Assembly: GCA_964484195.1 (NCBI GenBank)
Contig: CAZAER010000001.1
Coordinates: 285,510-349,509 of the forward strand
DNA from: an uncultured Bdellovibrionales bacterium
Lineage (GTDB): Bacteria; Myxococcota; XYA12-FULL-58-9; JALHOP01
Direction: 5' to 3'
DNA length: 64,000 nucleotides
Position numbers and translations under genes: made by a program. Of this stretch, positions 2,116-64,000 are shown one piece after another. Under the pieces are notes generated by a model that worked only from the letters and a program-made list of their open reading frames with translations, did not search any database and had not been told where the DNA came from. Each line of letters starts with the position of its first letter. Position 1 is the first letter of the stretch.

Positions 2116-3948
<1,833 letters not shown>

Positions 3949-4019
3949 CGCTCGGACACGCAACTTCGCGCCCCGCCTGCCGATACAGGAGACGAGACTG
4001 ACGATCCTGGGGTCGCGCT

Positions 4020-4307
4020 ATGCATCCGCTCGACTATTGGCTCACCCGTAAGGCCAAGGCTCCCAAGCAGGAGCAGGCCGGCACGACCGCGAGTTGCCTC
4101 GCCGGTGACGTTGGTTTGGCCGAGGCTCTGCAGCTGGACGGTGCCTGGTGCCACGAGGCGCGTGAGCGTGCCATCACCCTCTACGGTGAAGGGCGCTGGG
4201 AGGCGTGCATCGCTATCATTCGCGGCCTGGTCTTGCTCGGGAGCGAAAGCCCGGTCGACACCATCCTTCTCGAGCGGTGTCAGGCGCGCCTGGAACGCGG
4301 CGCATGA
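4020..4307 (+). CDS. Hypothetical small protein (95 aa), first gene of a coupled operon
   Basis: The ORF has GC3-biased codons. Its stop TGA (4305-4307) overlaps the ATG (4304-4306) of the next gene. The competing upstream extension of the next ORF back to 4205 is Arg-rich, wrong-frame-like sequence. No recognisable domain. Confidence 0.45.
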   Translation: MHPLDYWLTRKAKAPKQEQAGTTASCLAGDVGLAEALQLDGAWCHEARERAITLYGEGRWEACIAIIRGLVLLGSESPVDTILLERCQARLERGA

Positions 4308-6049
4308 TTTGGGGGACGCTCGACGCCCGCGTCTTGTCTCGCGATGTCGGCGCCATCGCGCAGGCAGTGGATTGCGCCGTACGTGCGGTGACGCGGCGGC
4401 CCGCCGATCGCTACGAAGCGGCACCCGTCGACAGCGCCAAGGCACAGCGAGAGCCTGCGCCGGCCGAGATGGAGGAGCTGCGGGCGCTTCTCGGACCCCG
4501 GCCTGACGCGAACACTGCCGTTGTCGTGACGAAAATCGTGACCGAGCTCAGCGTCGCACTCGACGCTTGGCGCGGCTTGTCACCGCTCTCGTCTACCGAC
4601 AAGCGCATCGCCGTCTTCTTCCAGCGCGGGCAGCTGGTGCGCACCGCAACCGAGGTCGAGCGCATGCTGGACGCGCTGAAGGGTACGCCGCTCGCAGCCA
4701 GCTTCCCGCGTGCTCAGCTCGACGCCATCAAGAGACGCGCCCAGGCGGACATCGATGCGATGGCGCAGCCGGTTCTCGCGCAGTCGTTCGACGATGCACT
4801 GCCGGCGAAGAGCTTGACCGCGGAGCAGGCGCTCGCGGCTTTGCCGCGGTTGTTGCCCGGGTTCGACGGGGTGGCTCGGCTCGCCGCCGCACGCCCGGCG
4901 ATCGATGACCAGCTGATCGCCTTCGCATTGCTCGCCGATCAAGCGATTCACGCTCCCGACTATGCGCGCTTGCCCCCGGGCGTGAGCCCGCAGTGTCGCG
5001 CCGCCCACCGCCGCCGCCAAGGCGACGCAGCGCAGTCGCTCGAGCTGCGTTTTGCCAACTACGAGCGTCGTGAGCATTGCGTGGCGACCCTGAGGTCGGT
5101 GCTCGGGCGCGTGGCGCGCGCCGGCGACCCGGCCGCTGCGCTCGCGGCCGCGCTGCCGAACGAAATGCTGCGTCAATGCGGAATTGCCGCGAGCGAGGCG
5201 ACCGCATGGAGACCGACGACCGCGGGCATCTTGCACCTGTTGCGCTGCGAGGGTCTCACACCGTTGCGAGGCCTGTGGGCTTACCGCGGCCGGATGAGCG
5301 CGCGTAACCCGGAGCTCAGGGCTCGCACTCTGTCCGTTTTGGCGGAGATGACGGGGGCGATGCTCGCGGGCACCTACGAGCAGTGGTTGTTCGAAGGGCG
5401 CATTCCCGACGAGCAGCTGCGCTGCCTCGATGCACGTCAGCGTCTTTTGTGGCGGACGGCGGATTCACACGCGTACGACGGCCTCACGACTCGGGAAGAG
5501 AACGGCCTCGAGCGCATGTGGGTCACCAAGATCGGCGGGCCGAGCCATGGCTTCGACCACGGGCCGGACTGCCTCTTGCCGTTCCTCGCCAATGCCTACA
5601 CCACGGCGATCTTGGTCGACGATCCCCGTCATCCGGAGAATGCTGCTGCGCGCTGCTATCTGCGGGTGCTCGAAGCGCCGGGTGGCCAGCCGGTGCTCTA
5701 CCTCGAGCCCCTGCAACGCGACTTCCCGTATCGCGAGCACTTCCCGGACCCCGAAGACAAGCTACGCGTTCATGCAGCTATCTTGAGGCACGCTGTCGCC
5801 AAAGCGGACAAGCTCGGCGTGCCGTTGGTGACCGCGGACTTCGGAGTCGAAATGGCGGCGCTTCGCACCGGCGTACCGCTCTACGAAGCGTCGAGCTATC
5901 TCGTCATGCCGGCGTCCCGTGGCATTCGCGAGGCCTCCGACACCTTGCTCAGGTTGCACGACTGGCCACAGCTCGAGACGCGAAACAGCGATCAGCTCCC
6001 CTTGCTGGTGTACGAGTCACGCTTACGCGCGGGGGAAGGCGCCACGTGA
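4304..6049 (+). CDS. Hypothetical protein (581 aa), no recognisable family
   Basis: Long Ala/Leu/Arg-rich ORF. Its start ATG overlaps the upstream stop (ATGA). Its stop TGA at 6047-6049 overlaps the GTG at 6046-6048 of the downstream gene. No Walker, HExxH, SAM or other motifs seen. Confidence 0.6.
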   Translation: MIWGTLDARVLSRDVGAIAQAVDCAVRAVTRRPADRYEAAPVDSAKAQREPAPAEMEELRALLGPRPDANTAVVVTKIVTELSVALDAWRGLSPLSSTDKRIAVFFQRGQLVRTATEVERMLDALKGTPLAASFPRAQLDAIKRRAQADIDAMAQPVLAQSFDDALPAKSLTAEQALAALPRLLPGFDGVARLAAARPAIDDQLIAFALLADQAIHAPDYARLPPGVSPQCRAAHRRRQGDAAQSLELRFANYERREHCVATLRSVLGRVARAGDPAAALAAALPNEMLRQCGIAASEATAWRPTTAGILHLLRCEGLTPLRGLWAYRGRMSARNPELRARTLSVLAEMTGAMLAGTYEQWLFEGRIPDEQLRCLDARQRLLWRTADSHAYDGLTTREENGLERMWVTKIGGPSHGFDHGPDCLLPFLANAYTTAILVDDPRHPENAAARCYLRVLEAPGGQPVLYLEPLQRDFPYREHFPDPEDKLRVHAAILRHAVAKADKLGVPLVTADFGVEMAALRTGVPLYEASSYLVMPASRGIREASDTLLRLHDWPQLETRNSDQLPLLVYESRLRAGEGAT

Positions 6050-9000
6050 ACCTCGCCGCGGTACTAGCAAAGCGCCGGGCGAGCGCGGCGGAGACGACGG
6101 GGGCACCTGCGAAGGTGCTTCTGCCGGGGCAGTTGGCACCGGCGCGGCCCGTCGACAGCTTCCTCGCCGAACGTGCCGCTGGTCCGTTGCAGACCATCAT
6201 CCGATATCTCGGCGACCCGTCCTCCGAGACGCCCGGCCGTTGCCGAGGCTTGCAGCTCTTGTGGAGCGAGGTCGGCACGCAGATGAAAGCCGTGCCCGCC
6301 GCCCGACGCGACGATGTGACGCGGCTTTGTGCCGAGAGGGTAGCGAGCCTCTGCGAGGCATTGGGACGCGACCCGTGTCTCGGAGCCGCCGTCTCGTGTC
6401 TCGTCGCCATGGTTGCTCATGCGGCGCGCAGCGATTGCTCGCGTATCGCTGAGCTCTCTGCAGCCGCCGAGCTTACCGTTGCGACCATCGCTCGCCGCTT
6501 CGTAGGCCGCACCGGCGGACACCTGGCCTTGTTCGCGCTCCGCAACATGGCCGACACGGTCCACCTGCGACGCGGCACCGACGCCGCGAGCCTTCCGGTG
6601 GCTTGGTCTGCATTGGCGGACTACACGGGAGCAGGGTTGCTCGCGGGTCCGGTCACGCAAACGGACATCAGCGGACTGACGGAGACACTGACGTGGAGCC
6701 TGGAGGGCGCGGCGGACGTGCCCACAGCGTGTGCGCAAGCAGTTGCGGAGCGACGCGATGCCTACGCGCTCGAGCTCGAGGACATCAAGGCCGCCGTGCG
6801 GCGATGCAGCAGTGACGCCCGCTACCGCGCCTTGCAAGACGCCGCGGTCATCGTGCTCGCGAGGTTTCCCGACGGGCCGTGCGACGTTTGGCGCTACGTT
6901 CGCTCGTTGGTGACCCATCTCGTGGTCGTCAAGGCGCCGCGGGCCAAGCTCGCCATCGCCGCCGAGCTGCTCGAAAAACAACAGACGCCTGCCGATGCCT
7001 TGCAGACCGCGAAGCTCCTTCGGGCGACGATCGACGGCTGGCCCGGTGGGTGGCTGCGCACCAAGACCGTGCACACGCTTCGGCAAGCTGGGGACGAATG
7101 GCCGGCGATGCTTCTGCGCATCTGCGCGCCCAGAGCAACGACCGTGCTGGCTCTCGGCGTGCTTGCCGGCATCGAGCCGTCGTCGCACCGGACCCTGCTG
7201 GTTCGCATGTTGTTGCAGGAGCGCGCCGCAAACCCCATGCTGGCTCTGTCCGCGTTCGCGGACGCGCGCGCAAGCATGCGATGTCTGGACGTGCTGGACG
7301 ATGAGCAATTGGAACGCTTCGCGGAGCGCCTCGTCGAGCTGGTCGCGGTGTTGCCGGCAGACCATGCGCGTGAAGCGGGCGAGGTCGCCTACGGTCGCAT
7401 TGGCCAACCTCGCATCAACAACGCGGGTGACACGCGTAGCACCTGTCGGGCGCTGGTCGACCAGATCCCCGGCGTGCGCCTCGCCCCTCTCTTGCTGCCG
7501 ACGGCGCAGGGCGCCGTCGGCGTTTTCGATGTGCGTCAGGGAGAGCGGCAACACGCCCCGGTCCCGCTCCTGCGCTCGCTGCTGGCGGGTGCCGTCGATG
7601 TCGCTGGATTGACGGAGAGCGGTAAGGAACGCCTGGCCCGTTTGCTCATGGCGGTGGCTCTCGAGCTAGCGAGCCTGGACCGCGACCCGAGCGTATTCGC
7701 AACCCTCGTGCGTGACGCGCTCGGCAAAGCCTGTAGCGCCGCGAACGACGAGACACCTCTGTTACTGCGCGCGCCAGCTGCCGTCGCATCCGCGAGCGTC
7801 GAGCGCATCACCGGTTTCGCGCAAGAGCATCCGACCTTCCCGCCGGAGCTCGTGATCCCCGCGGTCGTCCACCTGGAAGCCAAGACGCTTGCCTGGCTCG
7901 CAAGAAGGATGGCCGCCTGCTCGACCAACGTGGATCGCAGGTCGCTGCGCGACTTGACCGTGGCGGCGATCCTCGCCAAGCGCACGGCCGTCCTCGACGT
8001 GCTGCGCGAACGCGATGCCGTGCAGGCCTTCGCGCTCGCCGCCGTCGTGAATCCCCTCCATCGCATCGGCAACGACGCCCAGGTGCCATGGGACGAAATC
8101 CAGAACCTGCAGACCGCGGACGGCGATGCCGGAGCCATCCTCCAGGAGCGCGAGCTGCTCGAGGCCGATGGTGACCTCGAAGAGCTGCCCGATCTGTCGG
8201 CGACGAACGCCGCGGCAGCGAACGACCTCGCGACCGCGAAGTCTGACATCAAGATCCTGACGGCGTTTCTGAAAAGAGCCTCCTCCTGGGAAGACATACC
8301 GGCCGCTACGCTCCGCCATCACTTCAACGAGGTCCTCGCGGCGTCGGGCCGCGGCGACTGGCCGGCGCGCAAATACAACGACCCAGCCATCGTTGCCGGG
8401 TCTGCTTACGCGTTGCTGTCGCCCGAGAAACAGCTGTTCTGGCGCAATGGTTTCCGCGTCGACGGTCCACCTCCGGAACGGCCGAATCTGGGCGTGCTCG
8501 CGCCGGTGGCCGCGATGGCGGAGCGACTCGCGGGTCAAGTCGGCGCTATCGCCGACGCGAAGTATGGAGCGCGCTCCCTTCGCGCCTGCAACGAGAAGCG
8601 TGCCGACCTCGTTCAGGGGCTCCGCGCCCTGACGCGCGACTCTGCCGCCTATCTCGCGGCCAGTCGCGAGGTTGCGGTCCTCACCAACGAGCTCGCTTTG
8701 CGGACCTTCGAGCGCGCGGCCGCTGGTGTCGCGACGTCCGTCGAGGCGCCGGTCATCTTGCCGAGACTCGGACCCTTGGCACGTGATGCGGCAAACGCAG
8801 CGCGAAAGCTCGGCAATGCGAGCCTGGTTACCGAGCTACGCGATTTAGCGCACGCGGTGCTCGATCTGCCGCCGCCACCACCCAGCGGTCGCATCGCCAC
8901 GGCGTATGCTTCGAGCCAGACCTCGGTGACCGCGTTCCTCACGTCGTTCCGGGTCGGCTGCATGAACCCATCCGCGAAGCACAACGCGCCCGCGCTCATC

Positions 9001-9453
9001 GAGTTCATGCTGAACCCCGACTACCAGATGGCGCTCGCGTACGACCATGACGTCGCGCAGCGCCGAGGGGTCCTGCGCCTCTTCAAAGTGGAGATGCAGG
9101 GCTATAGCGGCCCGGCGCTGTACGTCGACTCCCCGTACGCGACGGCACACGGTGTCACGCAGACACGTGAGGCCGAGGGCGCCTACATCGACCTCGTCAT
9201 CATGATGGCGAAGAACCTGGGTGTGCCTGCGTTGATGCCCGAGAGCTGGCGTCACCAGATGAACCAGGTCGCCGACGTCGAGGGGATGGCCTGCTCGTCG
9301 AAGAACGTGAAAATCTTCGTGCCCTTTGGCGTCATCGGAGTGCACCAATCGGAAGCGTTCTCGAGCTACTTCATCAAGCCCAAGCCAGGCGTCCCTCACA
9401 CAGCCAAGATCACCTTCGCTGTCACCGAGCGTAAATCGAGCGGCTTCGAATGA
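6046..9453 (+). CDS. Hypothetical large protein (1135 aa), no recognisable family
   Basis: The in-frame GTG at 6046 is preceded by GGGGGAAGG, which is SD-like at a 7 nt spacing. The earlier ATG at 5383 would overlap the upstream gene by 660 nt. There are no TM segments and no P-loop. The stop TGA at 9451-9453 overlaps the ATG at 9450 of the GluRS gene. Confidence 0.6.
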   Translation: MNLAAVLAKRRASAAETTGAPAKVLLPGQLAPARPVDSFLAERAAGPLQTIIRYLGDPSSETPGRCRGLQLLWSEVGTQMKAVPAARRDDVTRLCAERVASLCEALGRDPCLGAAVSCLVAMVAHAARSDCSRIAELSAAAELTVATIARRFVGRTGGHLALFALRNMADTVHLRRGTDAASLPVAWSALADYTGAGLLAGPVTQTDISGLTETLTWSLEGAADVPTACAQAVAERRDAYALELEDIKAAVRRCSSDARYRALQDAAVIVLARFPDGPCDVWRYVRSLVTHLVVVKAPRAKLAIAAELLEKQQTPADALQTAKLLRATIDGWPGGWLRTKTVHTLRQAGDEWPAMLLRICAPRATTVLALGVLAGIEPSSHRTLLVRMLLQERAANPMLALSAFADARASMRCLDVLDDEQLERFAERLVELVAVLPADHAREAGEVAYGRIGQPRINNAGDTRSTCRALVDQIPGVRLAPLLLPTAQGAVGVFDVRQGERQHAPVPLLRSLLAGAVDVAGLTESGKERLARLLMAVALELASLDRDPSVFATLVRDALGKACSAANDETPLLLRAPAAVASASVERITGFAQEHPTFPPELVIPAVVHLEAKTLAWLARRMAACSTNVDRRSLRDLTVAAILAKRTAVLDVLRERDAVQAFALAAVVNPLHRIGNDAQVPWDEIQNLQTADGDAGAILQERELLEADGDLEELPDLSATNAAAANDLATAKSDIKILTAFLKRASSWEDIPAATLRHHFNEVLAASGRGDWPARKYNDPAIVAGSAYALLSPEKQLFWRNGFRVDGPPPERPNLGVLAPVAAMAERLAGQVGAIADAKYGARSLRACNEKRADLVQGLRALTRDSAAYLAASREVAVLTNELALRTFERAAAGVATSVEAPVILPRLGPLARDAANAARKLGNASLVTELRDLAHAVLDLPPPPPSGRIATAYASSQTSVTAFLTSFRVGCMNPSAKHNAPALIEFMLNPDYQMALAYDHDVAQRRGVLRLFKVEMQGYSGPALYVDSPYATAHGVTQTREAEGAYIDLVIMMAKNLGVPALMPESWRHQMNQVADVEGMACSSKNVKIFVPFGVIGVHQSEAFSSYFIKPKPGVPHTAKITFAVTERKSSGFE

Positions 9454-11021
9454 TCACCTGGCTGGCAACATTGTGGCCATGGAGCGAGCAGCGGGCCGAA
9501 CGCCGAGCGAAGGTCGCGTCGGCGCAGCTCCCCGAGGGTGACGTTGCGGTGCTACGCGGCAGGGTGCAGGCAGCCATGCAACGCTCGCGGCTGACGCTGC
9601 CCGATGTCGTCGAGGCGCATGAGCCGAGTCCCGAAGTCGCGGCGCTCGCGCGTTCGCTGCGTGAGGTCGCGACGCGTGGCCGTGGCGCGGCGGAGAGCCG
9701 GCGCCCGAGCATGCCCGCCGTGGCCGCGAGCGAGCCGCCGAGCGGCGAGGTTCGCACGCGCTTTGCGCCGAGCCCCACTGGCCAGCTTCACATCGGCGGT
9801 GCTCGCACCGCGCTCATGAACTATCTCTTCGCCAAACGGCTGGGCGGTGAGTTCGTGCTGCGCATCGAAGACACCGATCTGCCGCGCTCGCGACGCACGC
9901 ATACGGCAAGCATCCTCGGCAGCCTGCGCGCCCTAGGCATCACCTGGCAGGGCGAGGTCGTGCATCAATCGCGGCGCTCCGAGCTCTACGCGCGGAAGAT
10001 CGACGTCTTGATCGATCGAGGCGCGGCGTATCGCGACGAGACCGGCGCCGTTTGGTTCAAGGTTCCCAAAGAAGGCGACGTCATCGTGCACGACCGCGTG
10101 AAGGGAAGCGTTCGCGTCTCGCTCGCGGGGGACGCCATGCGTGACTACGTGATTCAGCGGGCAGACGGCACGGCGACCTTCTTGCTCGCCAACGTCGTCG
10201 ACGACGGTGAGCAGAAGATCACCCACGTCATCCGCGGCGATGACCATCTCGCGAACGTGGTCAAACAGATCCCGTTGTTCCGCGCCCTGGGTTACCCCGT
10301 GCCCCAATTTGCGCACGTGCCGCTGATCCTCGATGAGGATGGCGAGAAGCTCTCGAAGCGCAAAGGTGCGACCGGCGTCCTCGACTTTCTCGGCGAGAGC
10401 TTCGACCCCACCATCTTGGTGAACCATCTGGCGCGTCTCGGTCTCCGCATCCGGACGGATGAGATGCTGCCGCTGGACGAGCTCGCTAAAGCGGTCGACC
10501 CGTGGGGCTTCAAGCGCGCACCTGCACGGATCGACTTGCCCAAGCTCCGCGCCCGCAATCGCGAGCAGGTCCTCCGCCTGTCGCTACCGGAGCTGGTCGA
10601 ACAGGCGGCGGCCTGCGTACCGGATCTAGCGGAACGTCTAGGACCGACCCGTTTCATCGAGCTCTGCGAGGCGACCCGCACGCGTATTTCGACGTTCGGG
10701 GAGATTGCTGCGATTGCCGCCGCCATCGAAGCGGCTCCAGCCGCGCTGACCATCGACGACACGGCAGCGGTCGCGGGGGCCCGCGACGTGATCGATCGTG
10801 TCGCCGAGTGCCTTGCGGCGCTACCCGCCGAGCAATGGAGCACGCCGCATATCGACTCTGGGTTACGCGCCATGGTGCCAGGGCGTGGTCGTCAGAGCGC
10901 ACCCAGCTGGCGTGCCTTGCGCCTGATGTTGACCGGCGACGAAGTCGGGCTCGGGGTGGCGGCGACCATGGCCTTGTTGGGCCGCGACGTGACCCTGACG
11001 CGGCTGCGGCGCGCCGTCTAG
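9450..11021 (+). CDS. gltX: Glutamate--tRNA ligase (class I GluRS) with roughly 90 aa N-terminal extension
   Basis: Contains [43 protein letters not shown] (HIGH motif) and KLSKRKG (KMSKS motif). The anticodon-binding region is present (FDPTILVNHLARLGLR...). The ATG at 9450 overlaps the upstream stop. An alternative internal ATG at 9711 (MPAVAAS...) would give a 436 aa protein. Confidence 0.8.
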   Translation: MITWLATLWPWSEQRAERRAKVASAQLPEGDVAVLRGRVQAAMQRSRLTLPDVVEAHEPSPEVAALARSLREVATRGRGAAESRRPSMPAVAASEPPSGEVRTRFAPSPTGQLHIGGARTALMNYLFAKRLGGEFVLRIEDTDLPRSRRTHTASILGSLRALGITWQGEVVHQSRRSELYARKIDVLIDRGAAYRDETGAVWFKVPKEGDVIVHDRVKGSVRVSLAGDAMRDYVIQRADGTATFLLANVVDDGEQKITHVIRGDDHLANVVKQIPLFRALGYPVPQFAHVPLILDEDGEKLSKRKGATGVLDFLGESFDPTILVNHLARLGLRIRTDEMLPLDELAKAVDPWGFKRAPARIDLPKLRARNREQVLRLSLPELVEQAAACVPDLAERLGPTRFIELCEATRTRISTFGEIAAIAAAIEAAPAALTIDDTAAVAGARDVIDRVAECLAALPAEQWSTPHIDSGLRAMVPGRGRQSAPSWRALRLMLTGDEVGLGVAATMALLGRDVTLTRLRRAV

Positions 11022-11066
11022 ACACACTTCCCGAAGCGGCGCCCAATGCGTTAAGTCGCGGGACGC

Positions 11067-12635
11067 GTGCACGACATCGTCCTCACTACCTTCAATGCCA
11101 AATACGCCCATGCATCCATGGGCCTACGGTGCCTCTTCGCCTCGCTGGGAGACCTGCAGCAGCGGACGGTCATCGACGAGGCGATCTGTGGTGACCGGCC
11201 CGTCGAAGTGGCGGAGAAGCTCCTCGCACACGGGCCCAAGATCATCGGTGTTGGCGTCTATGTGTGGAACGCCGCGGCGTCGCGCGAGCTGGTGACGTTG
11301 CTCAAGAAGATCGCTCCCGACGTGACCGTGGTGATCGGTGGACCCGAGGTGAGCCACGAGGTCGACCTGCAGCCCATCGTCGCGGCCTGCGACTATGTGG
11401 TGACGGGGGAGGGCGAAGATGCTTTCGCGAAGCTCTGCGCCGGTATTCTCTCGGGTGCGCCGCCGTCCGCAAAAACGCACAACGGCGGTCTTCCCGATCT
11501 CGCGACGCTGCCTCTGCCGTACGCCTACTACGACGACGAAGACGTCGCGCATCGGGTGGTCTACGTCGAGGCATCGCGTGGCTGTCCGTTCACCTGCGAG
11601 TTTTGCCTCTCGTCGCTCGATGAACGGGTGCGCAATGTCCCGCTCGACCGCTTGTTCCCGGAGCTCGAGAGGTTGATGTCGCGCGGGGTCGACCATTTCA
11701 AGTTCATCGACCGCACTTTCAACCTCAAGCCCGCGGTGAGCAGCTCCATCCTCGAGTTCTTCCTCGAGCGCTACCGGCCCGGGGCGTTTGTTCATTTCGA
11801 GATGGTCCCGGACCGCCTGCCCGACAGCCTCCGCACCTTGCTCGCGCGCTTTCCGGCCGGCGCCGTGCAGCTCGAGGTCGGGGTGCAGACCTTCAACGAC
11901 GAGGTCGCTGCCCGCATTGGCCGGCGCCAGGATGTCGCCAAGCTCGAGGCGAACTTCCGTTTTCTGCGCGAGCACACGGGCGTCCACGTGCACGCCGATT
12001 TGATTGCCGGCCTGCCCGGAGAAACCTTCGCCAGCTTCGCGGCCGGCTTCGACCGCTTGCTCGCGCTCGGACCGCAAGAGATCCAGGTCGGCATCCTGAA
12101 GCGCCTGCGCGGCGCACCGATCGCTCGCCACACGGAAAGCCACCGCATGGTCTACGCCGAAGAGGCGCCGTACGAGGTGCTGTCCACGGACGTCATCGAC
12201 TTCATCACCATGCAGCGCCTCAAACGCTTCGCGAAGGTTTGGGATGCAGTCGGTAATAGCGGACAGTTTCTCGAGAGCCGCGCCTTGTTGTGGGGCAGCG
12301 ATTCTCCATTCGCGGCGGTCATGCAGCTCGCCGACCGCGCCCACCGCGAGCTGGGGCGAACGCACGCCATTAGCCTGGAACGCTGGTTTTCCTTGGTCTT
12401 TGCGTTCCTCACCGAAGAGAAGGGCGTGGCGCCACGGGAGGCGGGAATTAAGTTACACGCCGACTACACCCGCTCCGGACGCAAGAAACTACGATGGCTG
12501 GCGGAGCTAGCGGACGGGGAGACACTCCGTCATGACGTTTCGAATGCTCCTGGGGAGCTAAAGCTGATCCAATCTGTGCCGCTGGAGAGTATGACGGGCT
12601 TGCCCCGACGTCAGGCGCGACATCGGAAGAGCTGA
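11067..12635 (+). CDS. B12-binding domain radical SAM protein (DUF4080-type C-terminus)
   Basis: GTG start. The N-terminal cobalamin-binding-like domain is followed by the radical SAM motif ASRGCPFTCEFC (CxxxCxxC). The overall architecture matches class B radical SAM enzymes. Confidence 0.8.
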   Translation: MHDIVLTTFNAKYAHASMGLRCLFASLGDLQQRTVIDEAICGDRPVEVAEKLLAHGPKIIGVGVYVWNAAASRELVTLLKKIAPDVTVVIGGPEVSHEVDLQPIVAACDYVVTGEGEDAFAKLCAGILSGAPPSAKTHNGGLPDLATLPLPYAYYDDEDVAHRVVYVEASRGCPFTCEFCLSSLDERVRNVPLDRLFPELERLMSRGVDHFKFIDRTFNLKPAVSSSILEFFLERYRPGAFVHFEMVPDRLPDSLRTLLARFPAGAVQLEVGVQTFNDEVAARIGRRQDVAKLEANFRFLREHTGVHVHADLIAGLPGETFASFAAGFDRLLALGPQEIQVGILKRLRGAPIARHTESHRMVYAEEAPYEVLSTDVIDFITMQRLKRFAKVWDAVGNSGQFLESRALLWGSDSPFAAVMQLADRAHRELGRTHAISLERWFSLVFAFLTEEKGVAPREAGIKLHADYTRSGRKKLRWLAELADGETLRHDVSNAPGELKLIQSVPLESMTGLPRRQARHRKS

Positions 12636-12720
12636 ATTTCAATTTTTTCCACTTTTGCGGCGGACGCATGGTACATAAGACCATTGAATCCGCAGTGAAA
12701 TCAGTGGGCCGGAATACCTA
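12636..12720 (+). promoter_or_regulatory. Locally AT-rich intergenic segment upstream of the hybrid receiver-kinase gene (candidate promoter)
   Basis: atttcaattttttccacttttgcgg...tacataagaccattgaatc stands out against a roughly 70% GC background. Confidence 0.3.
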
Positions 12721-13869
12721 ATGTTGGCAGAGCAGCGTGATCGCATCGGCCAGATTCTGGTCGTTGATGACAATCTGCAGAATCGCATGCTGGTCGAAGC
12801 GCACCTCGCGGCCGCGGGCTATGCAGTCACGCTCGCCGAGGATGGTGAGCAAGCTGTCGACATGTTTGTCCGTAACATGCCCGACGTCGTGCTGCTCGAT
12901 GTCGTAATGCCGAAGATGGACGGATTCGAGGCCTGCCGGCGGATGCGCGCCGTGCGTCACGGGGCCGAAGCCGCCATCGTGTTCCTCACGGCTCTGTCCG
13001 AGATGGGCGCTCACCAAGACGCCATGCAGGCGGGCGCCGACGACTTCCTCACCAAGCCGATCAATCGCACCGAGCTCCTGATGCGTGTGCGCTCGCTGGT
13101 GTGGATGAAGCGGCTCAAAGAAGGTCTGCGCAACGGCTACGACCTCATTCGCTCGCAGCGCGAAGCGCTCTTCGTGGCGCAGCGCCAGAAGGAAGAGACG
13201 ATCACGTACATCGTCCACGACCTGCAAAACCCGCTGGCCAGTGTGCTCGCCAACACCGAGTTCCTCATCGGCCAAGACTCGCTCTCACCCGATCTGCGCG
13301 ACGCGGGCTACGACATCCTCGAAGCCAGCCGTGCCATGCAACGCATGGTGCAGAACCTGCTCGACATCAGTCGCAGTGAAGACGGCGCCCTCGTGCCGAA
13401 TGCGCAGCCCATCGATCTCGCCGAGCTGGTGAAGACCATCGGCGTCGATATGACGTACCGGCTGAGCGAGAAGAAGCTCAAGCTCGAGACCGCGTTCGAA
13501 ACCCAAGACGCCAAAGTGAACGCCGACCCCGACTTGCTGCGGCGCTTGGTCGAGAACCTCCTCGACAACGCCTTCAAGTACTCGCCGCAAAACGGTGTCG
13601 TCGAGCTGAAAGCAAAGCTCGGTGAGGGCGACTCGGTGGAGTTCCGAGTCATCGATCACGGCATCGGCATCCCCGAAGAGATGCGCGAGCAAGTGTTCGA
13701 GAAGTACGTGCGGCTCGAGCGTGAAGCGACCCGCGGCCGCCGTGCAGGCAGAGGCCTCGGACTCGCGTTCTGTCGACTCGCGGTCGAGGTCCATGGTGGC
13801 CGGATCTGGGTCGAAGCGGCCGAGCCTACCGGTGCGGCTTTCTGTGTGCGATTACCTCGCGCGAAGTGA
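12721..13869 (+). CDS. Hybrid signal-transduction protein: N-terminal receiver domain fused to a histidine kinase (HisKA + HATPase_c)
   Basis: Receiver domain with acidic pocket and VVLLDVVMPKMDG (phospho-Asp). H-box ITYIVHDLQNPL. ATPase G-boxes (IDHGIGIP, GRGLGLA). Confidence 0.8.
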   Translation: MLAEQRDRIGQILVVDDNLQNRMLVEAHLAAAGYAVTLAEDGEQAVDMFVRNMPDVVLLDVVMPKMDGFEACRRMRAVRHGAEAAIVFLTALSEMGAHQDAMQAGADDFLTKPINRTELLMRVRSLVWMKRLKEGLRNGYDLIRSQREALFVAQRQKEETITYIVHDLQNPLASVLANTEFLIGQDSLSPDLRDAGYDILEASRAMQRMVQNLLDISRSEDGALVPNAQPIDLAELVKTIGVDMTYRLSEKKLKLETAFETQDAKVNADPDLLRRLVENLLDNAFKYSPQNGVVELKAKLGEGDSVEFRVIDHGIGIPEEMREQVFEKYVRLEREATRGRRAGRGLGLAFCRLAVEVHGGRIWVEAAEPTGAAFCVRLPRAK

Positions 13870-14576
13870 AGAAGCGCAAGCGCGTTCGCACCATCGTGCT
13901 CCTCGTCGTCGCTGGCGTCGTCGCCTTCGCAGCGGTGGACTATCTGCGCTTGCCCTCGGTCGCGAAGATTGGCGAGCTCGCGAAGACCCGTCCGAAGACC
14001 ACCGCGCTCATGGACCTGCGCAAGGAGCAGGCGGCGGCCCAGGGTAAGAAGTACGCGGCGCGCTCGTCGTGGATCTCGCTGCGCGACATCAGCGAGCACC
14101 TGGTGCACGCGGTGATCACAACCGAGGATGGCGGCTTCTTCCAGCACGAGGGCGTCGACTGGGAAGAGCTCAAGATCTCGGTGCAGCACGACCTCGAAGA
14201 AGGCGAGGCGCTGCGTGGCGCGAGCACCATCACTCAGCAGCTCGCCAAGAACCTCTATCTCAACCCGAGCCGCTCGCCGCTGCGCAAGCTGCGTGAAATG
14301 GTCATCGCCCATCGCCTGGAGGAAGCGCTCAGCAAGTCGCGCATCCTCGAGCTGTACTTGAACCTCATCGAGTGGGGCCCGGGCGTCTACGGCTGCGAGC
14401 TGGCGGCGCAAAGCGCGTTCGGGAAGTCGGCGGCGGAGCTGACCCGCGAGGAAGCTGCGGCGATGGCGGCGGTCATCGCCAGTCCGCTAAAGCACCGCGC
14501 GAGCAACATCGAGGATCGGTTCGTGGTCCGGCGCACCACGATGATCCTCGGCCGCATGGCGGGACGCGGGTGGTGA
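13866..14576 (+). CDS. mtgA: Monofunctional biosynthetic peptidoglycan transglycosylase (GT51)
   Basis: N-terminal TM anchor. GT51 motifs EDGGFFQHEGVD, GASTITQQLAKNLYL and RKLREMVIA. The GTG start overlaps the upstream stop (GTGA). Confidence 0.8.
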   Translation: MKKRKRVRTIVLLVVAGVVAFAAVDYLRLPSVAKIGELAKTRPKTTALMDLRKEQAAAQGKKYAARSSWISLRDISEHLVHAVITTEDGGFFQHEGVDWEELKISVQHDLEEGEALRGASTITQQLAKNLYLNPSRSPLRKLREMVIAHRLEEALSKSRILELYLNLIEWGPGVYGCELAAQSAFGKSAAELTREEAAAMAAVIASPLKHRASNIEDRFVVRRTTMILGRMAGRGW

Positions 14577-14623
14577 CATCTCTCCAGACTGCCTTAGCTT
14601 AGGCGGTCTCGGGAGGGGGAGCC

Positions 14624-15040
14624 ATGGTTACTCTGCTACGACAAGTGATGACGCGGGACCCGATCATTCTGCGAGCCAAGGATTCGGTGCGCTCGGCCGC
14701 GCAATGCATGCGCGACAACGACATCGGATCGGTGCTGGTGCAGGAGGACGGAAGTTACGGAATCGTCACCGACCGCGACATCGTCCTGCGTGCCGTTGCC
14801 GACGATCGCGACGCCGCGACCACCCAGCTCGGTGACATTTGCACCCACGAGCTGTGCATGATGAGCGCCGACACGTTGATCGACGATGCGGTGCAGCTCA
14901 TGCGCGAGCGCAGTGTCCGCCGCCTGGTGATCATCGAAGGCACCCAGCCCGTGGGCGTGGTGTCGCTCGGCGACCTGGCGATGGAGCGTGACCCGTCGTC
15001 GTGCCTCGCTGACATCAGCGCGGCGCCTGCGCAGCACTAG
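14624..15040 (+). CDS. CBS domain pair protein
   Basis: Two CBS repeats (DIGSVLVQEDGSYGIVTDRDIV and VRRLVIIEGTQPVGVVSLGDL). Confidence 0.7.
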   Translation: MVTLLRQVMTRDPIILRAKDSVRSAAQCMRDNDIGSVLVQEDGSYGIVTDRDIVLRAVADDRDAATTQLGDICTHELCMMSADTLIDDAVQLMRERSVRRLVIIEGTQPVGVVSLGDLAMERDPSSCLADISAAPAQH

Positions 15041-15121
15041 CTGCGCAGGCTGTGCGCTGTAGCGCGTATTACGCGGCTCCGCCGCTAGAGGGCCGCGTCC
15101 GTCGCGGCCGCCCGTTCAGCA
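15027..15121. terminator. Cluster of GC-rich hairpins between the convergent CBS gene and speA (candidate bidirectional terminator)
   Basis: Perfect palindrome CTGCGCAG-cactag-CTGCGCAG (15027-15048) spanning the CBS stop codon. CGCGTA-t-TACGCG hairpin (15063-15075). GGCCGCG-tccgt-CGCGGCC (15091-15109). No U-tract. Confidence 0.35.
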
Positions 15122-17044
15122 TTAGCCTTCTTCGAGATACGTGTAGCCCGCGAGAGCGTCCTCGAACCGTTTGCGGAAGAGGGCGGACTCCTGGAGCTCG
15201 AGCTTGCCGGTGCGCAGCGCCTGTTCGGTCAGGTCGCGCAAGCGCCGCATGAGCTCGGGCTTCTCGTACTGCACGTAGCTCAGCACCTCGGTGACGCTGT
15301 CGCCTTCGACGATCTCGACGATGCGGTAGCCGTGCTGCTGGTCGAGGGTCACGTGGATGGCGGTCGTGTCACCGAAGAGGTTGTGCAAGTCGCCCAGGAT
15401 CTCCTGGTAGGCGCCCACCAAGAACATGCCGATGTAATACGGCTGCCCGTTCGGCGGGTGCAGCTCGAGCACCTCTTTGACATCGTGCAGGTCGATGAAC
15501 TGGTCGACCTTGCCGTCGCTGTCGCAGGTGATGTCCGCCAAAACGGCGCGCCGCGTCGGTTTCTCGCGCAGGCGGTGGATTGGCATGGTGGGGAAGAGCT
15601 GCTTCACGGCCCAGTGGTCGGGGGCCGATTGGAAGACCGAGAAGTTGCAGTAGAAGGTGTCCGCCATCGCCTTCTGCAGGCCCGCGACTTCGTCGGGCAC
15701 GTGCGACGCGGCTTCTTGCACGATCTTCAGGATCTTGTCGCAGCAAGCCCAGAAATAGCGCTCGGCTTTGGCGCGGCCGGCGAGGTCGAGATAACCCAAG
15801 GTGAAGAGGCTGACCGCCTGTTCCTTGTGGTCGACCGCGTCGTGATACTGCTCGACGAAGTTCTTGCGGGTGATGTTGCGCCAGATCTCGGCGAGGTCGC
15901 GCACGCTCTCGTGGTCTTCGTCGGTGATGCTGGGCAGCTCGGTCGACGGGACGACCTCGTTGACGCCGAGGACGTTGAACACGAGCACCGCGTGGTGGGC
16001 CACGAGAGCGCGGCCCGACTCACTGACGATGTCGGGGTGCGGGATGTTGCGCTCGTCGCAAGCCGTTTGGATCTGCGCCACCACGTCGTTCGCGTACTCT
16101 TGCAAGGAGTAGTTGGTGGACGAGTGGAAGTTGGTCTGCGAGCCGTCGTAGTCGACGCCGAGGCCGCCACCGACGTCGATGTACTTCATGCTGGCGCCGA
16201 GCGCCGAGAGCTCGACGAAGATGCGCGTCGCTTCCTGTAGCGCGTCTTTGTGAGCGCGGATGGCGGTGATCTGCGAGCCGATGTGGAAGTGCAAGAGCTC
16301 GAGGCAATCGAGCATCTCGACGTCGCGTAAACGCGTCACCGCCTGCATGAGCTCCGTCGCCGACAGACCGAACTTGCTGCGGTCGCCGGTCGACTCCACC
16401 CACTTGCCGGCGCCCTTGGTCGCGAGACGCGCGCGCACACCGATGTGCGGTCGGATGCCGAGGCGCTTCGAGACGTTGATGATCATCTCGATCTCTTCGA
16501 AGCGGTCGACGACGATGATCGGATTGCGGTTGAGCTTCTGCGCGAGCAGCGCGGTCTCGATGTACTCGACGTCTTTGTAGCCGTTGCAGATGATCAACGA
16601 CTCGGCGTTGTCGAGGAGCGAGAGCACCACGAGGAGCTCGGGCTTGCTGCCGGCCTCGAGGCCCAAACCGAGCGGCGAGCCATAACGAATGAGCTCTTCG
16701 ACGACGTGACGCTGCTGGTTGACCTTGATGGGATACACACCGCGATAGCGGCCTTTGTATCCGTATTCCTTGATGGCGGTCCCGAACGAACCGAAGATCT
16801 GCTTGACGCGGTGGTCGAGGATGTCGCTGAAGCGGAGCAGCACCGGCGCGCTGTAGCCGCGCTGCTCGATGTCTTTCATCAGGTCGATGAGCGCGACGCG
16901 GAGGTTCGGGTGCTCGGTGCTCTGCAGCTGCAGATTCCCGTCATCACCGATGCTGAAGTAGCCCTGGCCCCAGGGGCGGACTTGGTAAAGCTCTGCGCTA
17001 TCGGCGACGGTCCACGGACGAAGGTCCGGCTGCGAAATTTTCAT
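15122..17044 (-). CDS. speA: Biosynthetic arginine decarboxylase (PLP-dependent, alanine-racemase fold, about 640 aa)
   Basis: Full-length colinear similarity to SpeA, including YPIKVNQQRHVVEELI, IICNGYKD, HFHIGSQ, GGGLGVDYDG and the C-terminal domain. Confidence 0.9.
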   Translation of the reverse strand: MKISQPDLRPWTVADSAELYQVRPWGQGYFSIGDDGNLQLQSTEHPNLRVALIDLMKDIEQRGYSAPVLLRFSDILDHRVKQIFGSFGTAIKEYGYKGRYRGVYPIKVNQQRHVVEELIRYGSPLGLGLEAGSKPELLVVLSLLDNAESLIICNGYKDVEYIETALLAQKLNRNPIIVVDRFEEIEMIINVSKRLGIRPHIGVRARLATKGAGKWVESTGDRSKFGLSATELMQAVTRLRDVEMLDCLELLHFHIGSQITAIRAHKDALQEATRIFVELSALGASMKYIDVGGGLGVDYDGSQTNFHSSTNYSLQEYANDVVAQIQTACDERNIPHPDIVSESGRALVAHHAVLVFNVLGVNEVVPSTELPSITDEDHESVRDLAEIWRNITRKNFVEQYHDAVDHKEQAVSLFTLGYLDLAGRAKAERYFWACCDKILKIVQEAASHVPDEVAGLQKAMADTFYCNFSVFQSAPDHWAVKQLFPTMPIHRLREKPTRRAVLADITCDSDGKVDQFIDLHDVKEVLELHPPNGQPYYIGMFLVGAYQEILGDLHNLFGDTTAIHVTLDQQHGYRIVEIVEGDSVTEVLSYVQYEKPELMRRLRDLTEQALRTGKLELQESALFRKRFEDALAGYTYLEEG

Positions 17045-17103
17045 GTTCGTGAGCGCCCGCTATCACACTGAACGCGAGTCGTCAGCAGGATAGCACGTCG
17101 TTT

Positions 17104-17616
17104 TTAGGTTCCAGGGACCAGCACGGTGTCGATGACGTGGATGACGCCGTTCGACGCCATGACGTCTGGCTGCACCACTGTCGCGTTGTTCACCTTCACG
17201 CCGGAAGAGGTGTCGATGTTGAGCGCCGGGCCGGCCATCGTCGTGGCGCTGCTCATGCCGGCGACGTCGCGCGCGCTCACGCGACCAGCGACCACGTGGT
17301 ACGCGAGGATGGTGCGCAGCTTCTCCTTGTCCTGCATGAGAGCCTGGAGCTGATCCGGTGGCAGCTTCGCGAAGGCCTCGTCGGTCGGCGCGAACACCGT
17401 GAACGGGCCCGGACCCTTGAGCGTCGACATCAGGTCGGCGGCTTTGATCGCCGAGACCAGCGTCGAGAACGCGCCGGCGCTCTCCGCGGTGTCGACGACG
17501 TCCTTCTGCGTGAGCATGTCGCCGGTGGTGCCGGCTTGCGCGGGCTCGGCGCTCTGGCCGCTGCCGCAGGCGATGAGGGAGGCGAAGGCGAGAGAGCCAA
17601 TCAGTGTCTTCAGCAT
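17104..17616 (-). CDS. Fasciclin (FAS1) domain lipoprotein
   Basis: MLKTLIGSLAFASLIACGSG is a signal peptide with lipobox. A FAS1 domain follows (FTVFAPTDEAF...LAYHVV...NGVIHVIDTVL). The ORF-track start at 17667 adds 17 unlikely residues. Confidence 0.7.
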   Translation of the reverse strand: MLKTLIGSLAFASLIACGSGQSAEPAQAGTTGDMLTQKDVVDTAESAGAFSTLVSAIKAADLMSTLKGPGPFTVFAPTDEAFAKLPPDQLQALMQDKEKLRTILAYHVVAGRVSARDVAGMSSATTMAGPALNIDTSSGVKVNNATVVQPDVMASNGVIHVIDTVLVPGT

Positions 17617-17682
17617 GGAGAGACAACTCCCCCAGAACGGCGTGCAAAGAAAGACCCCGCTCTGCAACGTTTTTGTAACAGC

Positions 17683-18804
17683 CTAGAGCGGCGTGGTGGC
17701 CCGACTCAGACGATCGACGATGGCGAGCAGCACGCCGCTCGCCTTTGGGAGGGGCTCGGCAACCAGCAACGCAGCACCGGTGCTATCGAGCAGACGAAGG
17801 GTGCGGAAGAGGTTACGCGCGGCTTCGTTCGGGTCACCGCTCGGCGACAGACTGTGAGCGAGCACGTCTCGTCCCGTGAGCTCGCGCAGACGCGTGGCGG
17901 CGCCACGTGCGTCGCCGAGCACGCAAATGAGAGCGATGGGGCCTTCGACGCCGCGCACGAGCTCCACGAGGCGGGTCGCGGCATCGTCCGCTAAAGAGGA
18001 CACGACGGTGGGCAGGCGGATGAAGCGCTTTGCTGGGGCGTAGTGGCGCTCGAGCATGCCGGGCGACGCCTGTGGCTTGAGCGCCGCGTTGGGCTTGGCG
18101 ACAGCGAGAGACTCCGAGAGGGTCGTCTCGAGGCGCTCCTGCGTGATGCTGCCCGGCCGGAGGATCAGCGGCGGATCGCCCACCGACACCACCGCGCTCT
18201 CGATGCCGACGTGTGCCGGGCCACCGTCGAGAATCAGGTCGACGCGTCCCCCTAGCTCCTCGAGCACGTGCGCCGCGGTGGTGGGGCTGATGCGTCCGAA
18301 GCGGTTGGCGCTCGGGGCCGCGAGCGGCTGCTTCACCGTGGTCAGGAGGTCTTGCGCCACAGGGTGCCCCGGGCAACGGATGGCGACGGTGTCGAGGCCG
18401 CTGGTGACGAGGTCGGGGACTTTCGGACCGCGCGGGACGACGAGCGTGAGTGGTCCGGGCCAGAAGGCCTTCGCCAACGTGTTCAAGCGCTCGCGAGCTT
18501 TGGCGGAAAGGAGGCTCGGGTCGAGGAGGCCGAGCTCGGCGAGATGGACGTCGGCATCGCCGGGTGGCGTTGGCACGTGGACGATGAGTGGGTCGAAGGT
18601 CGGCCGCTCCTTCACCGTGAAGATGGTGGCGAGCGCGACCTCGTCGAATGCGACCCCGGCGAGGCCATAGACGGTCTCGGTTGGGATGGCGACGACACGG
18701 GAGCGCAAGAGCGCCTCGGCGGCGGCCGTAAGATTCTCGGGCGTCGGCGTGAGAATGCTGGTCACGGGAGCCCCGAAGTCTACGCAAGGCCGGCCGCTTG
18801 GCAA
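17683..18804 (-). CDS. tsaC: L-threonylcarbamoyladenylate synthase (Sua5/YrdC domain plus Sua5 C-terminal domain)
   Basis: VAIPTETVYGLAG and ERPTFDPLIVHV are YrdC/Sua5 hallmarks. The 373 aa length matches the two-domain Sua5 form. The exact start is uncertain. Confidence 0.8.
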   Translation of the reverse strand: MPSGRPCVDFGAPVTSILTPTPENLTAAAEALLRSRVVAIPTETVYGLAGVAFDEVALATIFTVKERPTFDPLIVHVPTPPGDADVHLAELGLLDPSLLSAKARERLNTLAKAFWPGPLTLVVPRGPKVPDLVTSGLDTVAIRCPGHPVAQDLLTTVKQPLAAPSANRFGRISPTTAAHVLEELGGRVDLILDGGPAHVGIESAVVSVGDPPLILRPGSITQERLETTLSESLAVAKPNAALKPQASPGMLERHYAPAKRFIRLPTVVSSLADDAATRLVELVRGVEGPIALICVLGDARGAATRLRELTGRDVLAHSLSPSGDPNEAARNLFRTLRLLDSTGAALLVAEPLPKASGVLLAIVDRLSRATTPL

Positions 18805-21546: not shown

Positions 21547-22338
21547 GTGAAGTCTTGCGTCGTCGTCTTGCCTTGCTTCAACGAAGCCGAGCGTTTGCGG
21601 CCCTCCGAGCTCCTGCGTCTCGCCCGTCATCCGGCCATTCGTTTGATCTGCGTCGATGACGGCTCGACCGACACCACCTCGGCGATCCTCGAGGCGGTCA
21701 AGGCCAAGGCACCCGACCGCATCAGTGTCTTGCACCGTGGCGAGAACGGCGGTCGCGGCGCGGCGGTACGCGACGGCATGCGCAAAGCGCTCGCCGAAGG
21801 CGCCCACATGATCGGTTTTCTCGACGCCGACCTCGCGGCGCCGGTCGAGGAGATGATGCGCCTGCATGCCGTGCTCGCGACCAGCGACGTCGCGGCGGTG
21901 ATGGGCGCGCGGGTACGGCGTCTGGGGGCGAACATCGCGCGGACCGCGACCCGGCGTCTGCTCGGGCGGACATTCGCGAGCTTGGCCGCGCTGGCCATCG
22001 ATGTGCCGCTCTACGATACCCAATGCGGCGCCAAGCTCTTCCGCGCCAGCCCTGAGCTCGAAGCCGCGCTCGCCGAGCCATTCGTTGCCAAGTGGACCTT
22101 CGACGTCGAGCTCATCGCGCGGCTCTATCACGGCGGTCCCGGGGCCCCGGCGTTGGGCCCGGAGTCGTTCCTCGAAGTGCCGCTCGAGCACTGGCAAGAC
22201 GTCGCCGGCTCGAAGCTCACCGGGCACGATGCGCTGCGTGCCCTCGTCGACCTCGCGATCGTCGGGCTGCAAACACGGGCGCGCCGCAAGAAGGCGCCAG
22301 CTCGCGAGACGCCACGTCGTCGGTCCGCCGCCGCCTGA
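21547..22338 (+). CDS. GT2 family glycosyltransferase (polyprenyl-phosphate sugar synthase-like, DPM1/ArnC/GtrB type)
   Basis: [20 protein letters not shown] and FLDADL (DxD) motifs. GTG at 21547 avoids a divergent overlap with gpmA. The stop sits 2 nt before the gluQ ATG. Confidence 0.75.
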
Positions 22339-22340
22339 GT

Positions 22341-23264
22341 ATGGGTGTCGGTCGCTTTGCACCATCGCCGACGGGCGACGCGCACCCTGGAACGTTGCTC
22401 GCCGGATTGCTCGCTTGGCTCGACGCCAAGTCGCGTGGCGACACCGCACTCTTGCGACTCGAGGACCTCGATACGACGCGGGTGAAGTCCGCTTACACGG
22501 AGCAAATCGTGGAAGCGCTGGCATCGATCGGTTTGCGCTTCGATACCGTGGCAACGCAGAGCCTCGACAACGCCCGCCATGCGGCGGCGCTCGACACCTT
22601 GGCCGAGCGCGGTGCTCTCTACCCATGTTCGTGTCCGCGCAGCCGCATCAAGACGCTGGGTCGCAAGGCGCCCGACGGTGGATTCGCCTACGACAACGCG
22701 TGTCGTGGACGCTCGCTCCCCGCGGCCGGTTGGCGCGCCAGCAAGGAGAACGTGCGCGTGCGGCTGCCCGACGCTCCGCTCACCCTCGTCGATGAGAGCG
22801 GGCTCGATCTGTCGCAGACTCCGGCCATCGCCATGGGCGACCCAGTGGTCCTCCGCAAAGACGGAGTCGTCGCCTACCAGCTCGCGGTCGTGGTCGACGA
22901 CGCGGCCCAAGGCGTGACCCGGGTGGTGCGGGGGCGAGACATCGCGCCGAGCACCGCGACCCAGGTGATGTTGCAGCGGCTCCTCGGGTACGCGACACCG
23001 GCGTACCGCCACCACTTCCTGTTGCTCGAGCCTGATGGCGACAAGCTCGCGAAGCTCCACGGCTCGGTGGGCTTTCGCGCGTTATCGACGCGCTACGACG
23101 GTCCGGCGCTCTGCGGTTGGCTCGCGTGCGCCGCGGGTCTCGTCGAGCGCGAAGCCGCCACGACGCCCGCTGCGCTCCTGCCCGGCTTCTCCTGGGCACG
23201 GGTTCGCGCCGACGACCTTGCTGTCCGCTGGGACGGACAGCGATTAGCTCGGGATGGCGCCTGA
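22341..23264 (+). CDS. gluQ: Glutamyl-Q tRNA(Asp) synthetase (truncated GluRS paralog, about 307 aa, no anticodon-binding domain)
   Basis: [17 protein letters not shown] (HxGx class I motif), KLAKL (KMSKS-like) and the zinc-binding Cys cluster CSCPRS. The length and architecture match YadB/GluQRS. Confidence 0.8.
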
Positions 23265-31975: not shown

Positions 31976-35758
<3,783 letters not shown>

Positions 35759-63876: not shown

Positions 63877-63961
63877 CCGGCCAAAATAACACGATACCGC
63901 CAATCTGGAAGGGGCCCGAAGACGAATTGCGTCCGACAGCCCGTACGCCTTAGAGATTCGC

Positions 63962-64000
63962 ATGGCATTGGCACTCGTGACCGGCGCAAGCCGTGGCATC
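63962..64000 (+). CDS. Short-chain dehydrogenase/reductase (SDR), first 13 codons only (runs off the window edge)
   Basis: MALALVTGASRGI is the classic SDR N-terminal TGxxxGIG cofactor motif. Confidence 0.4.
   Translation, partial: MALALVTGASRGI

Follow-up and report, generated by a model that had tools for sequence, protein, structure and literature searches.

Outside translation, charged tRNAs are used to build cell-wall cross-bridges, to aminoacylate lipids, in N-degron tagging and lanthipeptide dehydration, and to make several antibiotics; each of these enzyme families has proved instructive. LysX is a fusion of lysyl-tRNA synthetase with MprF, and VlmL is a dedicated seryl-tRNA synthetase encoded in the valanimycin cluster. 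The fungal protein ErdS is a paralogue of aspartyl-tRNA synthetase fused to a DUF2156 aminoacyl-tRNA (aa-tRNA) transferase, and channelling of aa-tRNA between the two has been proposed (PMC7334510). VlmA, PacB, DhpH and FemX are GNAT-fold aa-tRNA transferases that have been reviewed (PMC12945691), and the DUF2156/FemXAB type is defined by two GNAT folds separated by a positively charged helix (PMC7334510, PMC12945691). The L/F-transferase (Aat), Bpt and ATE1 are likewise GNAT-fold enzymes and move an amino acid from aa-tRNA to protein N-termini (PMC10115844, PMC9351520). Here we analysed a 64,000-nucleotide (nt) stretch, referred to as the window, of contig CAZAER010000001.1 from an uncultured Bdellovibrionales bacterium (GCA_964484195.1), in which three genes, A, B and C, run into a paralogue of glutamyl-tRNA synthetase (GluRS). 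The best reading of this locus, a tentative one drawn by analogy, is that a dedicated GluRS feeds GNAT-fold aminoacyl-transferases.

The four open reading frames (ORFs) are arranged head to tail on the forward strand and joined by 4-nt overlaps, with sizes, coordinates and junction letters (ATGA, GTGA and ATGA) exactly as a preliminary description of this DNA had listed them (Table 1). The same genes were called independently by another gene caller on an identical 13-kb Logan contig. Coding periodicity is evident in all four, with a GC content at third codon positions (GC3) of 0.77-0.80 that is far above the value at second positions (GC2, ~0.51), and because each also has homologues elsewhere they are considered real genes. 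No clear sign of horizontal transfer was apparent from GC3. A Shine-Dalgarno-like run (GGGGGAAGG) lies 7-15 nt 5′ of the GTG that starts C, and the terminator-like matches inside the four-gene block are weak consensus matches within coding sequence. Judged from the sequence, the start/stop overlaps show co-transcription and possibly translational coupling; they say nothing of stoichiometry, and the earlier proposal of stoichiometric co-expression was not upheld.

The arrangement is conserved. Carriers of the module so far are only uncultured, mostly Myxococcota-labelled genomes and metagenomes. Eight loci with the GluRS paralogue were compared (the window, L007, L008, L010, L011, L012, L013 and L014), and in every one the gene of the GluRS clade lies 0-65 nt downstream of, or overlaps, a gene of family Y or of the family that includes C (X in the related loci, hereafter C/X). 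L007, L008 and L010 follow the order X (C-type)/W, M28-domain protein, Y, GluRS, A, B and, optionally, Z. The order in L012 is W, M28-domain protein, Y, GluRS, a fused A::B and Z, with L011 a degraded form of this arrangement; L014 runs W, X, Y, GluRS, A, B, and L013 holds Y and GluRS only. A and B, or their fusion, are adjacent in seven of the eight. As a control, 80 ordinary GluRS loci were taken from a metagenome scan that picked generic GluRS patterns, and none contained a homologue of B, C, Y or Z; 39 of these included at least 3.5 kb of upstream sequence. The difference in adjacency (8/8 versus 0/39) corresponds to a Fisher's exact p of ~3e-9, calculated by hand and treating the loci as independent although they are related. 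Moreover, the C/Y-GluRS adjacency persists at 39-67% identity and with all other neighbours reshuffled, so the linkage to gltX that the preliminary description proposed to check in related genomes is conserved.

B consists of N-terminal helical bundles followed by a C-terminal GNAT-fold domain, while C begins with ~940 amino acids (aa) of helical repeats and likewise ends in a GNAT-fold domain. The mixed alpha/beta core of the GNAT superfamily (b1-a1-a2-b2-b3-b4-a3-b5-a4-b6) is present, an assignment at the level of fold; the AlphaFold2 model of C has a pLDDT of 78.9. Since beta strands are confined to residues 388-570 of B and 953-1129 of C, save brief strands near C residues 747-752 and 803-806, each protein has a single GNAT domain. 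The family of B comprises 27 relatives of ~600 aa with 30-38% identity to B across the alignment, one of them labelled Myxococcota bacterium, and residues conserved in its GNAT domain include K409, H415, D418, C423, R450, R454, E468, D473, H496, K500 and H552. A word-indexed homologue search returned C alone, as an apparent orphan; this was corrected by an exhaustive HMMER search, which recovered 60 relatives, mostly of 1150-1230 aa, at 22-29% identity. C is a divergent member of its family that sits directly 5′ of the GluRS paralogue. Homology between B and C was detected only by profile-profile comparison: BLASTP found nothing and single-sequence hhalign was marginal (E 0.1), whereas C aligned with the B family (hhalign Prob 98.5, E 2e-15) and with the Y family (Prob 99.9, E 1e-33).

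In agreement with the earlier statement that A, B and C carry no motif assignable to a family, none of them matched Pfam or NCBIfam at E≤1, nor was there a match in PADLOC or among PDB sequences and profiles. Pfam acetyltransferase models did not match B, C or the cluster partners, with 28 B-family members scanned at E≤10. None of the B, C/X and Y families has the acetyl-CoA (CoA, coenzyme A) pyrophosphate motif Q/R-x-x-G-x-G/A in its beta4-alpha3 loop, and in this they resemble GNAT enzymes that do not use CoA, which likewise have no canonical CoA motif. The preliminary description had asked whether B and C might belong to a mundane, already characterised family, and none was found. Its general suggestion, an undescribed system or complex around a dedicated GluRS, is borne out by the linkage in seven further loci from divergent genomes and by the GNAT fold of B and C, which known aa-tRNA transferases also use.

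The GluRS paralogue passes the cutoff of TIGR00464 narrowly (310.7 bits versus 289.95), in two stretches that omit profile positions ~100-141, and also matches PF00749 and PF19269. Its conserved core begins at residue ~100, and the N-terminal extension of ~90 aa relative to canonical GluRS that had been noted from the DNA is real. Extensions of ~35-190 aa are found in all members of the clade, with a loosely conserved consensus P.L..L(S/T)..(E/D)I..LGG....PK right before RFAPSPTG. Residues ~75-96 of the window protein align to this pre-core motif, the window's own match being weak. Because these residues extend upstream of Met88, a start at the internal ATG at 9711, which had been raised as an alternative, is weakly disfavoured; no sigma-70-like promoter, such as that start was supposed to have of its own, was found within 3700-12800.

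The HIGH and KMSKS motifs of the paralogue are present as HIGG (H114) and KLSKR (K300), and the glutamate-recognition network of R104, R262 and D252 (equivalent to Arg5, Arg205 and Asp195) is kept; clade alignments show motifs and network to be invariant. This Arg/Arg/Asp network is strictly conserved in GluRS, whereas Tyr187 is not critical (PMC2978374). Tyr187 is replaced by Phe in the Y..A.VVDD motif of the clade, a change initially considered a sign of altered amino-acid specificity and dropped because the tyrosine is not critical. The signature F-L-L-A-N-V-V-D-D was found in 8/8 clade loci and in 0/78 control GluRS. Absence of the Zn-binding insertion was discarded as a clade hallmark, since it is also seen in about ten of the ordinary control GluRS. 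With the HIGH/KMSKS motifs, the recognition network and the anticodon-binding domain intact, the paralogue should still make Glu-tRNA and is predicted to be a working tRNA-charging enzyme.

The paralogue also looks specialised. A neighbour-joining tree placed 25 aligned members in a monophyletic clade against 74 ordinary GluRS, and N-terminal extensions are accompanied by fusions in some members. The clade is small, with ~30 members found among 5.8 billion sequences, and similar in size to the B family; its members share 39-59% identity with the window GluRS. Individual members vary in architecture: P0031 (838 aa) continues from a clade GluRS into a second catalytic core without HIGH, P0052 (811 aa) carries LGFP-type repeats on both sides of the GluRS, and N-terminal extensions reach roughly 150-190 aa in P0055 and P0057. 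Such predicted repeats, or a second degenerate core, are unusual for a housekeeping enzyme.

Gene A is homologous (BLASTP, E 1e-14 to 1e-5) to a gene of 107-127 aa that overlaps the start of the B homologue in L002, L004, L007, L008, L010 and L014, and is a truncated member of this family in which the last helix is missing. The A and B families form a single 593-aa polypeptide in L012; L011 links A to a truncated form of B. Of nine A-family members, six show sub-threshold TPR or ANAPC3 matches at two positions (best E 1.4e-4); A of the window has no TPR match, even sub-threshold. The fusion and the TPR matches of its relatives suggest that A is a small TPR-like partner, adaptor or domain of B and not the precursor peptide envisaged earlier. 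L007 encodes a second, longer B paralogue (13059-15929, 956 aa). Extra A-like genes lie 3′ of B-type genes with 4-nt overlaps in L007 (15926-16291) and L008 (11863-12237), and A-type genes can therefore sit on either side of B-type genes.

In the proposed mechanism, the paralogue would activate glutamate and charge tRNA(Glu), and the resulting Glu-tRNA would be passed to the GNAT-fold domain or domains of the neighbouring proteins. Acting as aminoacyl-transferases, these would shift the glutamyl group to an acceptor; the large helical domains suggest a protein or peptide, and a small molecule or lipid would also be possible. A would dock or regulate B. What points to Glu-tRNA as the donor for B, C and Y is their conserved adjacency to the GluRS paralogue, and there is precedent for this reading because paralogues of aminoacyl-tRNA synthetases (aaRS) fused or linked to GNAT-fold aa-tRNA transferases are known. 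No signal peptides were noticed when A, B, C and GluRS were read by eye, which suggests that all four proteins are cytoplasmic, where aa-tRNA is available. A more specific version, in which the single-GNAT proteins B, X/C and Y glutamylate proteins or peptides using Glu-tRNA from their own GluRS, is possible if doubtful; the M28 peptidases and other enzymes of the larger clusters could then process the product.

The module resembles ErdS and MprF/LysX in that a dedicated aaRS paralogue is coupled physically or genetically to a GNAT-fold transferase. In those systems the transferase is a double GNAT (DUF2156) that has a basic helix and lipid acceptors, whereas in the window module one GNAT domain, unrelated in sequence, follows 400-950 aa of helical repeats, and the synthetase is a class I GluRS encoded by a separate gene, not a fusion. 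VlmL/VlmA, PacB, DhpH/DhpK, Orf11 and FemXAB offer a second likeness, being systems whose GNAT-fold enzymes take the aminoacyl group from aa-tRNA. However, these transferases are Fem-like double-GNAT proteins of about 330-420 aa recognisable by sequence, and B, C and Y matched no VlmA/Fem-type enzyme in Pfam or PDB profile searches; neither B nor C has the double GNAT that marks the DUF2156/FemXAB type. L/F-transferase, Bpt and ATE1 gave no sequence match and no top-ranking structural match to B, C or Y. They have no dedicated aaRS partner, and the donor in the window module would be glutamate, which no known member uses. The GluRS clade shares its catalytic core and motifs with canonical GluRS and GluQRS, and the anticodon-binding domain with GluRS as well, but differs from canonical GluRS in its N-terminal extension, the Tyr187-to-Phe change, the missing Zn insertion (missing from some ordinary GluRS too) and an obligatory C or Y neighbour. 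Since the defining features of the LanB, Fem/DUF2156 and GNAT-toxin families were looked for and not found, the module is placed outside all three, and it most plausibly works like the aaRS-coupled GNAT transferases. A literature search found no description of the module and none of a Glu-tRNA-dependent GNAT transferase.

Several observations weigh against a dedicated GluRS feeding GNAT-fold transferases. The GNAT domain is single, in contrast to the double fold and basic helix of the known lipid and peptidoglycan aa-tRNA transferases, and all confident structural neighbours are CoA-using GNATs. Members of the B and C families occur without a nearby GluRS paralogue in L002, L003, L004 and L095. 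No locus contains a dedicated tRNA gene (tRNA genes and Rfam families were absent from the window, and no relevant tRNA was found in the related loci). The paralogue could be the housekeeping GluRS, the sequence covered being 64 kb of the genome; a search of genome contigs with it gave two ordinary GluRS and no relatives among the matches listed. Finally, A, B, C and GluRS of the window each rank first or near the top of their families in divergence; C departs from 14 of 42 highly conserved columns, and the window copy may be degenerating or the whole locus under relaxed selection.

The divergence is uneven across the four genes. Of 76 columns with at least 90% conservation, B departs from the consensus at 6, and it keeps all 40 family-invariant residues; GluRS departs at 11 of 121 highly conserved columns. 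The GNAT domain of C retains the invariant C972 and R1007 but has lost near-invariant positions (D957S, D959T, R997L, K1054M, T1097I and P1129R). B is thus the probable catalyst in this genome, and C may be mainly a scaffold for the synthetase, or a pseudo-enzyme. The locus appears to be a reduced version of an accessory gene module that is conserved among uncultured Myxococcota-like bacteria.

In keeping with the CoA-using structural neighbours, B, C and Y could be acyl-CoA-dependent GNATs that act on the GluRS paralogue, on Glu-tRNA or on some unrelated substrate, for example through N-acylation of Glu-tRNA as AtaT/TacT toxins do or through regulatory acetylation of the synthetase. The paralogue would then be a substrate or regulatory partner and not the supplier of a donor. 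The aa-tRNA-acetylating toxins AtaT, TacT and KacT, whose GNAT domain binds the aminoacylated 3′ end of tRNA, are among the Foldseek matches, albeit weakly (E at least 0.17), and the small upstream gene overlapping a GNAT gene is reminiscent of the AtaR/AtaT layout. We nevertheless regard this explanation as unlikely. The acetyl-CoA motif is missing in all three families, and the toxins are CoA-dependent proteins of about 170 aa paired with ribbon-helix-helix antitoxins, whereas the window proteins B and C have 581 and 1135 aa, the families span 600-1200 aa, one operon encodes several GNAT paralogues, and A appears TPR-like and can be fused to B, as in L012. No PADLOC or toxin family matched.

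Alternatively, the clade could be the sole housekeeping GluRS of a small lineage, with C and Y accessory, scaffolding or merely syntenic, and A and B unrelated neighbours. Its catalytic and tRNA-binding hallmarks are all intact, the window protein scores above the NCBIfam equivalog cutoff and one member is annotated at NCBI as glutamate--tRNA ligase. The 64-kb window holds no canonical gltX and two non-canonical GluRS relatives only, the second being a GluRS-like gene at 22353-23261 (+), inside an ORF at 22092-23264, whose best match is GluQRS (tRNA glutamyl-Q34 synthetase); its 239 bits against TIGR03838 fall short of the 276.7 cutoff and an anticodon-binding domain is lacking, leaving the window without a second full-length GluRS. 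Set against this, the C/Y-GluRS adjacency survives divergence and reshuffling of the neighbours, clade members are fused to LGFP repeats or a degenerate second core, and A and B co-occur in 7/8 loci. A purely housekeeping clade is in our estimate quite unlikely, and even then the paralogue could be functionally coupled to C or Y.

Self-resistance copies of aaRS in gene clusters are a known theme, and small two-TPR proteins resemble class II secretion chaperones. The locus could be an effector or toxin system whose large helical-GNAT proteins, as delivered or conflict-related enzymes, attack GluRS or Glu-tRNA; A would act as chaperone or immunity protein, and the divergent GluRS would be a resistant target copy protecting the producer. 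Multiple, fast-evolving paralogues, A-like genes on either side of B-type genes in L007 and L008, and an ATLF/AAA giant protein and a rhomboid in extended clusters would fit. However, reading the sequences by eye revealed neither signal peptides nor domains for secretion or delivery, no secretion genes are nearby, the A::B fusion speaks against an immunity role, and GluRS always follows C or Y and does not lie at a cluster edge. In PADLOC, neither the window's A, B, C and GluRS nor the tested proteins of families Z, Y and W had a match; AAA-type matches came only from the 1687-aa ATLF/AAA protein of L014. We consider this explanation improbable. Hardly credible is the lead of the preliminary description, a LanB-, split-LanB- or PEARL-like glutamyl-tRNA-dependent pathway to a ribosomally synthesised and post-translationally modified peptide with A as precursor: the 95-aa/1135-aa sizes, the use of Glu-tRNA (LanB) or aa-tRNA (PEARL) by enzymes of about 800-1100 aa, the GluRS sometimes co-encoded with them and a B12-radical SAM gene 45 nt downstream recall such systems, but membership was rejected because PF04738 and PF14028 are unmatched, the fold is GNAT and not that of the LanB glutamylation domain, and there is no separate precursor peptide, LanC or elimination domain.

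Ordinary chromosomal genes flank the window module: pyrD and an acyl-CoA dehydrogenase gene precede it, and a B12-radical SAM/DUF4080 gene, a hybrid kinase, mtgA and speA follow. The B12-binding radical SAM protein with DUF4080 (11067-12635, +) begins 45 nt after the GluRS stop with no terminator between them, and its gene may be co-transcribed with GluRS. It is missing from all seven related loci and is therefore not counted in the module. Further along, a Kgd-type multifunctional 2-oxoglutarate decarboxylase/dehydrogenase with a fused E2-like part (31976-35758, +; PRK12270, 1771 bits) gives a taxonomic hint. An SNF2-family helicase gene (61063-63999, -) is truncated by the edge of the window; its matches to SCO1167-type, pilus-regulating Snf2 and ZorD/DrmD anti-phage helicase models score well under the respective cutoffs.

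The larger clusters contain additional families (Table 1). Directly upstream of Y lies a protein of 900-966 aa with an N-terminal Peptidase_M28 domain, the C-terminal ~600 aa of which gave only weak SCP2_2 and Mac hints. Family Z (409-430 aa) follows B in four loci, with 39-67% pairwise BLASTP identity and the motifs GWGHVHTSF, FSKH and ETRGG. It has no Pfam or PDB match and is unrelated to the Amidoligase_2-like gene of L014, and the idea of a glutamine-synthetase-like amidoligase was dropped. Family W (128-150 aa, 202 aa as called in L011; 44-62% identity), without a family match, is among the best-conserved parts of the extended clusters and usually the first gene; it could be a substrate or regulator. 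L014 also encodes the 1687-aa protein (13607-18670) with a weak anthrax-lethal-factor-like (ATLF) match and AAA domains, rhomboid proteases occur in L011 (14948-16063) and L012 (18573-19703), and L013 carries an Mpa/ARC-like proteasomal ATPase (4623-6269, -). These proteins hint at a protein-processing context.

Table 1. Coordinates of the four-gene module in the window and of additional families in related loci
Feature	Position	Strand	Details
Gene A	4020..4307	+	95 aa, ATG start
A/B start/stop overlap ATGA	4304..4307	+	context gcgcATGAttt
Gene B	4304..6049	+	581 aa, ATG start at 4304
GNAT-fold domain of B, residues 388-570	5465..6013	+	
B/C start/stop overlap GTGA	6046..6049	+	context ccacGTGAacc
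Gene C	6046..9453	+	1135 aa, GTG start at 6046
GNAT-fold domain of C, residues 953-1129	8902..9432	+	
C/GluRS start/stop overlap ATGA	9450..9453	+	context tcgaATGAtca
GluRS paralogue (D clade)	9450..11021	+	523 aa
N-terminal extension of GluRS paralogue, residues 1-99	9450..9746	+	
Anticodon-binding domain, GluRS residues 394-522	10629..11015	+	PF19269 57.2 bits, E 3e-15
M28-domain protein	L007 2272-4983; L008 1844-4744; L010 2072-4798; L012 3880-6645		
Family Z	L007 11820-13049; L010 11830-13113; L011 12832-14097; L012 13432-14724		
Family W	L008 1221-1667; L011 3694-4302; L012 3414-3866; L014 3962-4384 and 18811-19263		

Three large families without a Pfam, NCBIfam or PDB-sequence match thus share a GNAT-fold domain and are tied by gene order to a private GluRS clade. 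The minimal set of A, B, C and GluRS is directly expressible and assayable. If a dedicated GluRS does feed GNAT-fold transferases, the module would represent a new combination of donor and enzyme and a new example of synthetase-to-transferase channelling. Even if the donor were acyl-CoA, the obligatory pairing of a GluRS paralogue with B-, C- or Y-type proteins would be a new kind of synthetase partnership.

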